Source: an uncultured Chloroflexia bacterium
GTDB lineage: Bacteria; Chloroflexota; Anaerolineae; Anaerolineales; Anaerolineaceae
DNA length: 32,000 nucleotides
Direction of reading: 5' to 3'
Assembly: GCA_963704755.1 (NCBI GenBank)
Contig: OY969938.1
Coordinates: forward strand, 3,690,001 to 3,722,000
The notes beneath the pieces were generated by a model. That model was not told where the DNA came from, did not search any database, and saw only the letters and a list, made by a program, of their open reading frames with translations. Made by a program: the position numbers and the translations under genes. Of this stretch, positions 23,341 to 24,070 are shown piece by piece (the stretch's first letter is position 1; each line of letters begins with the position of its first letter).

Positions 23341-23997
23341 ATCGTCGTGGCAACCCACGAAGCTTAAAAAGAAAAACCTCAACTTTATGAGGTTTTTTGA
23401 GCGGGCGATGGGAACTCGATCATTGATCCCCCTACGGGGAACCACGAACTTAAAAAGAAAAACCTCAACTTTATGAGGTTTTTTGAGCGGGCGATGGGAC
23501 ACGATCATTGATCCCCCCGCGGGGAACCACGAGCTTAAAAAGAAAAACCTCAACTTTATGAGGTTTTTTAAGCAGGCGATGGGACACGATCATTGATCCC
23601 CCTACGGGGAACCACGAGCTTAAAAAGAAAAACCTCAACTTTATGAGGTTTTTTGAGCGGGCGATGGGACACGATCATTGATCCCCCTACGGGGAACCAC
23701 GAGCTTAAAAAGAAAAACCTCAACTTTATGAGGTTTTTTGAGCGAGCGATGGGACACGATCATTGATCCCCCTACGGGGAACCACGAAGCTTAAAAAGAA
23801 AAACCTCAACTTTATGAGGTTTTTTGAGCGGGCGATGGGACTCGATCATTGATCCCCCTACGGGGAACCACGAGGTTAAAAAGAAAAACCTCAACTTTAT
23901 GAGGTTTTTTGAGCGGGCGATGGGACACGATCATTGATCCCCCTACGGGGAACCACGAAGCTTAAAAAGAAAAACCTCAACTTTATGAGGTTTTTTG
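23341..23997. repeat. Tandem array of eight 85/86-bp units directly abutting the tRNA-Gly 3' end. Each unit has a terminator hairpin plus a CCCC-CTAC-GGGG hairpin, and seven units also carry a 15-19-nt copy of the tRNA-Gly 3' end.
   Basis: CCTCAACTTT starts at 23377, 23463, 23548, 23633, 23718, 23804, 23889 and 23975. AGCGGGCGATGGGA(C) recurs 7 times and an eighth time as the true tRNA end. Confidence 0.92.
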
Positions 23998-24070
23998 AGC
24001 GGGCGATGGGACTCGAACCCACGACCTTCTCCTTGGCAAGGAGACGTTCTACCAACTGAACCACGCCCGC
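23998..24070 (-). tRNA. tRNA-Gly (anticodon GCC)
   Basis: The reverse complement is GCGGGCG-TG-GTTC-AGTTGGTA-GAAC-G-TCTCC-TTGCCAA-GGAGA-AGGTC-GTGGG-TTCGAGT-CCCAT-CGCCCGC-T (73 nt, U73). Confidence 0.92.

Follow-up and report, generated by a model that had tools for sequence, protein, structure and literature searches.

Tandem repeats of a tRNA 3' end with predicted terminators behind tRNA-Gly(GCC) in an uncultured Chloroflexia bacterium

INTRODUCTION

The closest described counterpart of the array reported here lies behind the tyrT-tyrV tRNA genes of Escherichia coli. These distal repeats, which include the rtT RNA (rttR) and an open reading frame named 'tpr', were reportedly first described by Egan and Landy in 1978 and by Rossi et al. 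in 1981. The E. coli locus consists of 178-bp tandem units (3.1 copies) whose final 19 nt repeat the 3' end of tRNA-Tyr. A T-arm 5' half stands 64 nt upstream of this fragment, and a unit reads CTTCG(ACC)AAGGTTCGA, then the 64 nt including CGTTGCC-GCA-GGCAACG, then AATCC. Annotation assigns the repeat region to the small RNA RttR. Termination at tyrT has been reported to be Rho-dependent.

Several other systems share parts of this design. At the end of a tRNA operon of Photobacterium phosphoreum, Giroux and Cedergren are said to have found, in the late 1980s, repeated tRNA pseudogenes that are each followed by a terminator-like hairpin. Fail-safe tandem terminators stand behind highly expressed stable-RNA operons, as in T1-T2 of rrnB. 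In E. coli, glyW-cysT-leuZ has a 3' external spacer that offers a further analogue of a functional trailer RNA.

The array described here lies in 32,000 nt of contig OY969938.1 from an uncultured Chloroflexia bacterium (the window). As in tyrT-tyrV, tandem units directly follow a tRNA gene on the same strand, each carries the last 19 nt of the tRNA, a relic of the T-arm 5' half is split from this fragment by a hairpin-bearing insert, and a spurious open reading frame runs through the repeats. The window array has 7.7 copies of 85 bp in place of 3.1 copies of 178 bp, and a predicted intrinsic terminator in every unit, unlike tyrT-tyrV. There is no sequence or Rfam similarity between the two, and the phylum is different. 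In a search for homology to rtT RNA (RF00391), Rfam gave only tRNA matches at the gathering threshold, and across 22000-27200 there was no rtT match at E <= 5. The original prediction knew of no described element with this layout; the tyrT distal repeats have it. The layout is therefore not unprecedented, nor is it unique, since it occurs in at least 25 other species genomes. We found no description of such arrays in Chloroflexi in the literature searched.

RESULTS AND DISCUSSION

Structure of the array

The tRNA-Gly(GCC) gene (23997..24070, minus strand, or from 23998) was called by both ARAGORN and Rfam (72.7 bits) and does not encode CCA. Eighteen nucleotides upstream there is a near-consensus sigma-70-type promoter-like site, TTGACG-17-TATAAT (24089..24117, minus strand), which agrees with the consensus at 11 of 12 positions. 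The tandem array found by TRF (23355..24016, minus strand) has an 85/86-bp unit, called as 85 bp, in 7.7 copies with 96% matches. AAAAAACCTCATAAAGTTGAGGTTTTTCTTTTT occurs eight times in it, at spacings of 86, 85, 86, 85, 85, 85 and 86 nt. The first occurrence belongs to the real tRNA, whose last 19 nt (23998-24016) constitute the first copy of the repeated fragment, and seven extra units lie behind it. Both TCGTGGTTCCCCGTAGGGGGATCAATGA and the orphan fragment TCG(A/T)GTCCCATCGCCCGCT are present in seven copies. Allowing up to three mismatches, the 15-mer GTCCCATCGCCCGCT occurs nine times in the window against 1.1 expected, a count reached in none of 100 shuffles. Gene calling by ARAGORN and Rfam, the TRF result and dissection of the units all agree that the originally proposed eight-unit array behind tRNA-Gly(GCC) is real. 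Each 85-base block combines the last 19 bases of the tRNA with a predicted transcription stop signal and a small predicted hairpin. At its distal end the array stops at AAGCTTCGTGGGTT|GCCACGA (~23352-23365), where a small hairpin, TCGTGG-GTTG-CCACGA (23345..23360, minus strand), follows. Array homology ends inside this hairpin, the 5' arm of which is the last T-stem-like segment.

Eight intrinsic-terminator-like sites were identified on the minus strand, each with a 10-bp stem containing three G-C pairs, a 6-nt loop and TTTTTCTTTTT. The first (23964..23996) is the tRNA's own, consisting of an A tract, the 10-bp hairpin and a T tract; the others lie at 23878..23910, 23793..23825, 23707..23739, 23622..23654, 23537..23569, 23452..23484 and, for the last, 23366..23398. 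A stable hairpin followed by a T tract, as in a Rho-independent terminator, is present at all eight sites, and the terminator hairpin also forms in the predicted fold of the unit. None of its 33 columns varies among the eight copies, compared with 10 of 53 in the rest of the unit (Fisher p = 0.012), making the terminator the only invariant part of the window unit. The multi-terminator insulator that was among the options first proposed is consistent with this pattern of eight terminator-like hairpins as the sole invariant element.

Between the eight terminator hairpins lie seven orphan tRNA 3' ends and seven second hairpins, all on the minus strand. The first orphan fragment, TCGTGTCCCATCGCCCGCT, is at 23912..23930. 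The second (23827..23845) is identical to the tRNA end at 19 of 19 positions. The third (23741..23759) and fifth (23571..23589) each have one acceptor SNP, the fourth is at 23656..23674 and the sixth at 23486..23504, and the seventh (23400..23419) has one T inserted. The seven TCG(A/T) fragments that had been predicted, one of them a full match to the tRNA, were thus all recovered. Five of the 20 columns of the fragment are variable in the window.

The second hairpin takes the form of a pseudo-T-arm. The first copy, TCGTGGTTCCCC-GTA-GGGGGATCAATGA (23931..23958), consists of a relic of the T-stem 5' strand plus an inserted hairpin, and further copies occupy 23846..23873, 23760..23787, 23675..23702, 23590..23617, 23505..23532 (with the loop variant GCG) and 23420..23447. 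The window unit can be read as a T-arm 5'-half relic, TCGTGG-TTC, followed by CCCC-GTA-GGGG and TCGAGTCCC. The inserted hairpin had been written as CCCC-GTAG-GGGG, but its actual form is CCCC-GTA-GGGG(G), and it is predicted to reach ~12 bp, spanning TCGTGGTTCCCC/GGGGGATCA-ATGA. Similarly, CGTGGTTC had been assigned to tRNA positions 6-13. The match is indeed 8 of 8; however, homologous units elsewhere carry AAGGTCG(Y)GGGT, which corresponds to tRNA positions 43-54, and the segment is therefore better read as the T-arm 5' half with one G lost.

In its predicted fold a unit consists of a hairpin, ~20 nt of single strand and the terminator. Pairing probabilities in the window units are 0.02-0.30 for the T-stem 3' strand and 0.31-0.57 for the acceptor 3' strand, both below the shuffled means (~0.5 and ~0.65, respectively). 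Across the family (n=61) the values match those of shuffled sequences, at 0.44 versus 0.42 for the T-stem 3' strand and 0.57 versus 0.57 for the acceptor 3' strand. A minihelix in which the 3' fragment is always sequestered was considered and rejected, as there is no excess over shuffles. A 6-bp acceptor-like helix is seen in the predicted folds of some relatives (L013, L053, L072 and L075), and such a helix in type-A units is only partly supported. In the array region, ARAGORN and Rfam recognize the real gene only, and at a permissive threshold Rfam gives nothing besides tRNA and noise. Folding predictions and tRNA models suggest that the window units do not fold like a tRNA. These results partly contradict the proposal that the units are mimics of the tRNA end acting as decoys: the tRNA end is there in sequence, but tRNA models do not see the units, and the 3' fragment is predicted to be mostly unpaired.

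Some other classes of element can be dismissed. The array is not a CRISPR, as the whole 85-bp unit is constant and there are no variable spacers. A 14-copy scan match (L029) is an unrelated, real CRISPR array that contains the 12-mer by chance and looks quite different. An 82-aa open reading frame (23305-23553) spans units, but the 85/86 period is not a multiple of three and a coding function was rejected. A ToxI-like antitoxin array was rejected as well: no toxin gene is adjacent, and the next open reading frame encodes a 50-aa hydrophobic peptide. A V4R protein is encoded at 24623-25255. In Bellilinea caldifistulae and other close relatives, the orthologous Robl/V4R loci have hisD or other genes upstream, and no tRNA-Gly is found there.

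Related arrays in other genomes

The original prediction called for a search for other tRNAs with such tails in relatives, and they were found. At least 25 other Anaerolineae/Chloroflexota species genomes contain one to five modules behind tRNA-Gly(GCC), tRNA-Gly(UCC) or tRNA-Cys. At 24 Chloroflexota loci a real tRNA-Gly(GCC/UCC) is followed by one to five modules of terminator, hairpin and 3' fragment, and four further arrays lie at contig ends. tRNA-Cys, a type for which the scan did not select, has module tails at 7 of 16 loci. Other tRNA types have them in 0 of 14 cases, except for one tRNA-Leu (1 of 2). The design thus recurs on three tRNA species across many genomes, unlike that of tyrT-tyrV. 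The T-stem/acceptor junction TCCCATCG is common to tRNAs Gly-GCC, Gly-UCC and Cys. Many of the scan matches outside the Chloroflexi are coding repeats or ordinary tandem tRNA genes.

A covariance model (R1) built from the other genomes only, without the window sequence, matches all seven window units with scores of 37.8-50.5 bits. Terminators are identical within one genome and different between genomes. The inserted hairpin shows compensatory changes in four of five pairs, 95% of cells are paired, and none of 500 shuffles reached its covariation score. In L017 and L030 the hairpin and linker are sequence-identical even though the adjoining terminators have completely diverged. These comparisons show the inserted hairpin to be the one part of the unit that is maintained. 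The non-tRNA part of the units is ~91-96% conserved, against 78-90% for flanking coding DNA.

The number of extra units differs between related loci, being one in L010 versus two in L081, whose flanks are 87-90% identical, and one in L008 versus two in L084. The array ends resemble duplication junctions, with homology ending just after or inside the last terminator. Complete tandem tRNA-Gly genes are present in L006, L019 and L069. The left edge of the tRNA-derived part varies by locus, falling at about tRNA position 26, 43, 55-57 or 60. At 13 related loci the modules fill a gap of 160-530 bp between tRNA-Gly and tRNA-Cys. In L084 both a Gly and a Cys array are present, and their units have a common non-tRNA part but different tRNA ends.

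Origin and expansion

The explanation we favor, at a probability of roughly 0.55, is that the array is a tyrT-like distal repeat formed by partial tandem duplication, expanded by unequal recombination and resulting in stacked terminators. On this view, a tRNA-Gly(GCC) gene with a strong promoter has had its 3' trailer and termination region turned into a repeat of the tyrT type. The founding duplication may have had its left breakpoint in the T arm and its right one beyond the terminator, leaving the gene intact and behind it a 5'-truncated copy made up of the T-arm relic, the acceptor 3' strand and the terminator. Any two copies would then be substrates for unequal homologous recombination or replication slippage, and copy number would therefore drift, as between the one to five extra units of relatives and the seven found here. 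Concerted evolution by the same exchanges could keep the copies alike and identical to the 3' end of the real gene, itself under selection. If the hairpins are active, RNA polymerase would meet an identical intrinsic terminator every 85 nt, and read-through from the tRNA promoter into co-oriented downstream genes would be cut stepwise. In this respect the window resembles the fail-safe arrangement, with several predicted intrinsic terminators in series after a strong stable-RNA promoter. It differs from terminators of the rrnB kind in having eight identical, repeat-expanded copies, each with a tRNA fragment and a second hairpin. The P. phosphoreum repeats, in a gammaproteobacterium, are reportedly near full-length pseudogenes, unlike the fragments in the window.

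Several observations fit this explanation poorly. Neutral duplication does not account for the ~20-nt hairpin between the T-stem 5' strand and the T loop, for the preservation of its pairing by compensatory changes, or for its identity in L017 and L030 beside fully diverged terminators. The Gly and Cys units of L084, with their common non-tRNA part, imply either that the loci exchanged sequence or that a directed process was at work. Eight terminators also look like more than insulation needs, and the gene that follows in relatives is a further tRNA, which has a promoter of its own. Finally, the copy number of eight is known from one assembly.

Alternative explanations

The same hairpin is among the arguments for a more tentative reading, which we regard as rather unlikely. 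Cleavage of read-through transcripts, perhaps by RNase Z at the discriminator base of every unit, could release small RNAs of unit length that serve as regulators, sponges or decoys. Each would display the tRNA 3'-end sequence between the conserved 5' hairpin and the terminator hairpin, and the targets would be factors that bind the 3' end of tRNA-Gly or tRNA-Cys. Such RNAs would be analogous to the rtT RNA of tyrT or the glyW-cysT-leuZ spacer. The compensatory changes in the hairpin, the identity of hairpin and linker in L017 and L030 despite different terminators, and the conservation of the non-tRNA part above that of flanking coding DNA are all consistent with such a role. The predicted layout of hairpin, single strand and terminator resembles a bacterial small RNA, and the tyrT repeat region is itself annotated as one, although its mode of action is still called unknown. 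However, the units contain no promoter, so that expression would need read-through of an apparently good terminator. The tRNA fragment in the window is as variable as the spacers, its pairing shows no general excess over shuffled controls, Rfam gives no match to the units even when thresholds are relaxed, and constraint at the DNA level could also give the covariation of the hairpin. Extended to the family, it would make the tRNA-Gly/tRNA-Cys trailer modules of Anaerolineae, each a covarying hairpin, the exposed last ~20 nt of the tRNA and a terminator, a set of read-through-expressed and processed small RNAs acting as regulators or decoys through the tRNA-end sequence. This broader claim seems doubtful.

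Generic amplification of terminator- or hairpin-rich intergenic DNA, similar to REP/BIME elements and with an incidental link to the tRNA, is improbable. Within 4 kb there are indeed two more tandem arrays (213 bp x 3.9 and 287 bp x 2.9), forming one family that is full of terminator-like hairpins. However, the 85-bp unit shares nothing with them and occurs nowhere else in the window, and its homologues in other genomes, those of tRNA-Cys included, always stand behind the matching tRNA and carry the 3' end of that very tRNA.

Repeated integration and loss of an element through a tyrosine integrase, with crossover in the T loop, could have left tandem attR-like scars that were later amplified. 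The counterpart would be the attP of an integrative element carrying the hairpin and TCGAGTCCCATCGCCCGCT. As at integrase attachment sites, the tRNA 3' end is directly repeated from the T loop onward in the window array, and the orphan fragments end exactly at the tRNA end, as att duplications do. In L084 the left part is common to the Gly and Cys units and is joined at T-loop position 56/57. In addition, tRNA-Gly and tRNA-Cys are 4.7 kb apart in the window, compared with 160-530 bp in relatives, so something was inserted downstream. No fragment is found at the far end of this 4.7-kb segment, however, and a Pfam scan of 20 window ORFs gave no integrase, transposase or recombinase. Units of 85 bp, and gaps of 160-530 bp filled by modules in the 13 relatives, are too short to accommodate an element. 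The limits of tRNA identity vary from locus to locus and do not define a single crossover site. Each orphan copy is followed by the same terminator as the gene, and the T arm is interrupted by a hairpin; attachment sites, with their integrase, element DNA and fixed crossover point, differ in all these respects. Among IMG/VR viral contigs, signatures of type-A, type-B and type-C modules had 0 matches; what was seen there amounted to phage tRNA-Gly genes and a single ordinary att-like fragment. With neither an integrase nor space for an element in evidence, a variable left edge and no module in the viral contigs, the amplified att scars first suggested are very unlikely.

Most improbable of all is a copy number inflated by the assembly of a shorter array: the sequence does come from a single assembly of a species absent from the metagenome and genome collections scanned (a unit-specific 23-mer and a terminator 22-mer had no matches in the metagenomes), and arrays of this kind often break short-read contigs, but the window units are told apart by SNPs and indels whose order is fixed, which argues against simple assembly stutter, and independent assemblies of other species also contain arrays with up to five extra units.

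CONCLUSIONS

Until now, tandem repeats of a tRNA 3' end had been an oddity of tyrT in E. coli, with a function that was never settled. The same design, with a predicted intrinsic terminator in each unit, is now found in at least 25 species of a distant phylum, where it follows three different tRNAs; it reaches eight copies in the window and includes a hairpin whose pairing is preserved by compensatory change. This recurrence, together with the eight copies and the compensatory hairpin, provides a comparative system in place of a one-off. Such arrays also matter in practice: short-read assemblies break at tRNA loci that carry them, and the calling of genomic islands can misread them as the att scars of an integrase. 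The system could be used to address whether such trailers merely perpetuate themselves, as by-products of recombination at strongly transcribed tRNA genes, or produce functional RNAs, and how much redundancy in termination is tolerated or selected. Should the modules prove to be functional trailer RNAs, the tyrT/rtT repeat of E. coli, known for 45 years, would belong to a general class that arose convergently.

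The array behind tRNA-Gly(GCC)

The array follows a canonical tRNA-Gly(GCC) gene on the minus strand (window 23997–24070; ARAGORN; Rfam, 72.7 bits). The gene does not encode CCA, and a promoter-like site (TTGACG-17-TATAAT) lies 18 nt upstream on the same strand. Tandem Repeats Finder places 7.7 copies of an 85-bp unit (96% matches) at 23355–24016. In the tRNA direction, a 33-nt block, AAAAAACCTCATAAAGTTGAGGTTTTTCTTTTT, comes after the last 19 nt of the tRNA; then follow AAGCT(T), TCGTGGTTCCCCGTAGGGGGATCAATGA and once more TCG(A/T)GTCCCATCGCCCGCT, after which the cycle restarts. 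There are eight terminator blocks, the first being the gene's own, seven copies of the second hairpin and seven orphan 3' fragments. ARAGORN, Rfam, Tandem Repeats Finder and dissection of the units confirm, with small corrections, the tRNA-Gly and eight-fold tandem array of the original prediction, and one of the seven orphan fragments indeed matches the tRNA end at 19/19 positions. With up to 3 mismatches allowed, the window contains nine copies of the tRNA-end 15-mer where 1.1 are expected, and 0/100 shuffles reach nine. The units are distinguished by individual SNPs and 1-nt indels, which disfavours assembly stutter. Each unit also contains two GATC sites 7 nt apart (14 in 0.66 kb, 23418–23936), a density of ~21 per kb compared with 6.3 per kb across the whole window; related units in other genomes do not conserve these sites. 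A coding function of the units was rejected, as the 82-aa ORF spanning three of them (23305–23553, minus strand) is a repeat artefact.

The gene content of the window is ordinary, with housekeeping and sensory genes and neither an integrase nor a transposase among them. For the V4R protein neighbouring the array, the best-matching named relatives belong to Bellilinea, Levilinea and other Anaerolineae. A tRNA-Cys gene lies downstream, 4.7 kb from tRNA-Gly, compared with 160–530 bp in 14 relatives. Lying in between (19335–23354) are the repeat arrays, a hydrophobic ORF of 50 aa, and an O-methyltransferase gene along with those for a glyoxalase-fold protein, a TfoX_N protein and a small membrane protein; an integrase is absent from this segment, and its far end carries no tRNA fragment. 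Directly downstream of the tRNA-Gly array are a perfect 26-bp inverted repeat with a 3-nt loop (23173–23227) and, just 3' of it, the hydrophobic ORF (MPRVIFGIILIISG...; 22988–23140, minus strand), which is preceded by a Shine-Dalgarno sequence. Two more tandem arrays, at 22135–22957 (213 bp, 3.9 copies) and 26174–26992 (287 bp, 2.9 copies), form one repeat family with ~85% identity over ~200 bp in opposite orientation. Their units contain several hairpins each, two of them terminator-like, and the 287-bp array occupies a gene gap that is short in the relative L001. The genome seems prone to amplify terminator-rich intergenic DNA. In L001 a region beside tRNA-Phe (16265–19969) encodes SocA_Panacea, a Mutator-type transposase, SLATT_5 and a reverse transcriptase (RVT_1), and is possibly a defence island.

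Distribution of tRNA-tail arrays

One genome per species was scanned for two copies of CCATCGCCCGCT at 57–87 nt spacing, and 83 loci were returned. After tRNA calling, 24 Chloroflexota loci consist of a tRNA-Gly (GCC or UCC) followed by 1–5 orphan 3' fragments, each with a hairpin before it and a copy of that gene's own terminator after it. Named genera with arrays include Anaerolinea, Leptolinea, Pelolinea and Bellilinea. Four further arrays lie at contig ends, bringing the total to ~25 species genomes. On this sequence comparison, the layout is a family trait of Anaerolineae. The scan also picked up a locus of a Candidatus Contendobacter MAG (L029), a genuine CRISPR array of 14 repeats with variable spacers, because its repeat CTCAGAATCCATCGCCCGCTAATAGGGCTTTGTGAC by chance includes the tRNA-Gly 12-mer on which the scan was based.

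Tails of this kind also stand behind tRNA-Cys, a tRNA outside the selection made by the scan (7 of 16 loci, plus L002, GCA_900174595), and were found in 0/14 loci of tRNA-Met, Phe, Thr, His, Ala, Arg and Gln. One MAG has modules at three tRNA loci (L017 and L021), and the T-stem/acceptor junction TCCCATCG is common to the three affected tRNAs. In L002 (9078–9229) tRNA-Gly has a single terminator, and two 70-bp units lie behind the adjacent tRNA-Cys, each in the order ACGGGTTCAAA, a CCCCC-GCA-GGGGG hairpin and TCCCGTCGTCGCCT and each lacking an intrinsic terminator. In Leptolinea (L084, 2394–2600 and 7815–7975; L008) the Gly and Cys modules have a non-tRNA part in common (ATCGGTTT, hairpin, CATTTCG, N6, TCAAC). 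Their hairpins differ by compensatory changes (CCGC/GCGG versus CCAC/GTGG), and each module is joined to its own tRNA end at T-loop position 56/57, the two genes being 5.4 kb apart.

Three loci (L006, L019 and L069) carry 2–3 complete tRNA-Gly(GCC) genes in tandem at ~87-nt spacing, a full-length counterpart of the partial duplications. In a Clostridia MAG (L078, ~3758–3900) tRNA-Gly(CCC) is followed by 35-nt units without terminators, in which the T loop and 3' end follow immediately on the 3' strand of the anticodon stem, a tRNA-tail array of another kind from a different phylum.

Unit types and conservation

The units fall into three types. Type B consists of AAGGTCG(Y)GGG(T) (tRNA positions 43–54), a hairpin (CCCC-loop-GGGG and variants), ATGNTA and TTCGAGTCCCATCGCCCGCTC, and thus reads as a T arm carrying a ~20-nt hairpin insert. 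It occurs at L013, L037, L053, L058, L072, L075, L017, L030 and L052, and the type-B units of L007 and L056 are nearest to those of the window. Type C, mainly behind tRNA-Cys, consists of GGGTT-T and a variable hairpin, then ATCTCCGCTGCGCTCCGA and CAAATCCCATCG. Type A is (GGGC)TCT-GGGA(G/T/C)-GCTnnGCA-(C/A/G)TCCCATCG, and its loop resembles a type-C insert that has been shortened. A longer relic, reaching back to the anticodon arm, is present in L036 and L043. A covariance model trained on eight type-B units from other genomes, in which the hairpin was the sole structure, matches 7/7 window units (37.8–50.5 bits, E ≤ 1e-6), so the window array belongs to this family. The segment CGTGGTTC had originally been matched to tRNA positions 6–13. 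The 8/8 match is real, and arises because GTGG(G)TTC is present twice in tRNA-Gly(GCC), but the model result favours reading the segment as the 5' strand of the T stem plus the T-loop start.

Pairing of the inserted hairpin holds in 95% of cells of the model-based alignment. At four of the five pairs both partners have changed (U:A to C:G, C:G to A:U and, at two pairs, C:G to U:A). The covariation score was reached by 0/500 shuffles, and shifted registers gave almost no double changes; because the alignment was fitted to the model, this result is biased towards the structure. Type A has one covarying pair (U:A 8, G:C 4, C:G 2). The hairpin and linker are identical between L017 and L030, while the adjacent terminators share nothing, and in three genome pairs the units are conserved more than flanking coding DNA. 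The pattern differs within the window array, where the 33-nt terminator is invariant in 8/8 copies, whereas 10 of 53 other columns vary (p = 0.012); the tRNA fragment is variable in 5 of 20 columns.

Comparison with E. coli tyrT-tyrV

The original prediction knew of no described element with this layout, but the tyrT-tyrV repeats of E. coli K-12 have the same design. Right behind tyrV, 3.1 copies of a 178-bp unit are found (TRF). Each unit ends in AATCCTTCCCCCACCACCA, the last 19 nt of tRNA-Tyr, and 64 nt upstream of this fragment holds CTTCG(ACC)AAGGTTCGA, which spans the variable region and T-stem 5' strand and reaches halfway through the T loop; a hairpin (CGTTGCC-GCA-GGCAACG) lies between. 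As in the window, a tRNA is followed by tandem units in which the T arm is split by a hairpin-bearing insert and the end is the tRNA's last 19 nt. In contrast, the window array has a shorter unit, a higher copy number and an intrinsic terminator in every unit, the Anaerolineae layout recurs across many genomes and three tRNAs, and there is no sequence or Rfam similarity between the window array and the tyrT repeats. The E. coli region is annotated with a small RNA, RttR, and a doubtful ORF, tpr, which is probably likewise a repeat artefact. The mode of action of rtT RNA is still called unknown in a 2024 preprint. Each 178-bp unit (L108, NC_000913 1286000–1288000, 705–1263) also contains GGGGAAGGAT, which is perfectly complementary over 10 nt to ATCCTTCCCC, the tRNA-derived sequence at the unit end, so that a long-range helix could close each E. 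coli unit.

Proposed origin and possible function

Terminators are identical within a genome and diverged between genomes, copy number differs between relatives, and the array ends look duplication-like. The arrays probably arose when part of the tRNA gene and its terminator were duplicated in tandem, with one breakpoint inside the tRNA on the left and one past the terminator on the right, leaving the gene intact. Copies would be gained and lost by unequal recombination or slippage, and the real tRNA gene's 3' end, being under selection, would anchor homogenisation. The effect would be stepwise termination of read-through from a strong promoter.

That the units encode a functional RNA is unlikely, but this reading is kept alive because partial duplication explains neither the position of the hairpin in the T loop, nor its conservation, nor the non-tRNA part common to the Gly and Cys units of L084.

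The units are not tRNA-like, in that tRNA models do not detect them. A minihelix is disfavoured by the predicted fold, a ~12-bp hairpin followed by a mostly single-stranded tRNA fragment and then the terminator; across 61 distinct units, pairing of the 3' fragment is no higher than with shuffled upstream sequence, and a 6-bp acceptor-like helix is predicted as possible in a subset (L013, L053, L072 and L075). Integrase attachment scars, as originally suggested, do not fit: neither a recombinase nor element DNA is present, tRNA identity begins at different left boundaries from locus to locus, the terminator of the orphan copies is the gene's own, and a viral counterpart was not found among IMG/VR contigs. 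A CRISPR array was rejected for the tRNA-tail units.

The window array is a real feature, neither an integrase scar array nor unprecedented. What is new here is a terminator-bearing, multi-genome variant of the tyrT-type tRNA-distal repeat, which would be of higher interest if its units prove to be expressed and processed.
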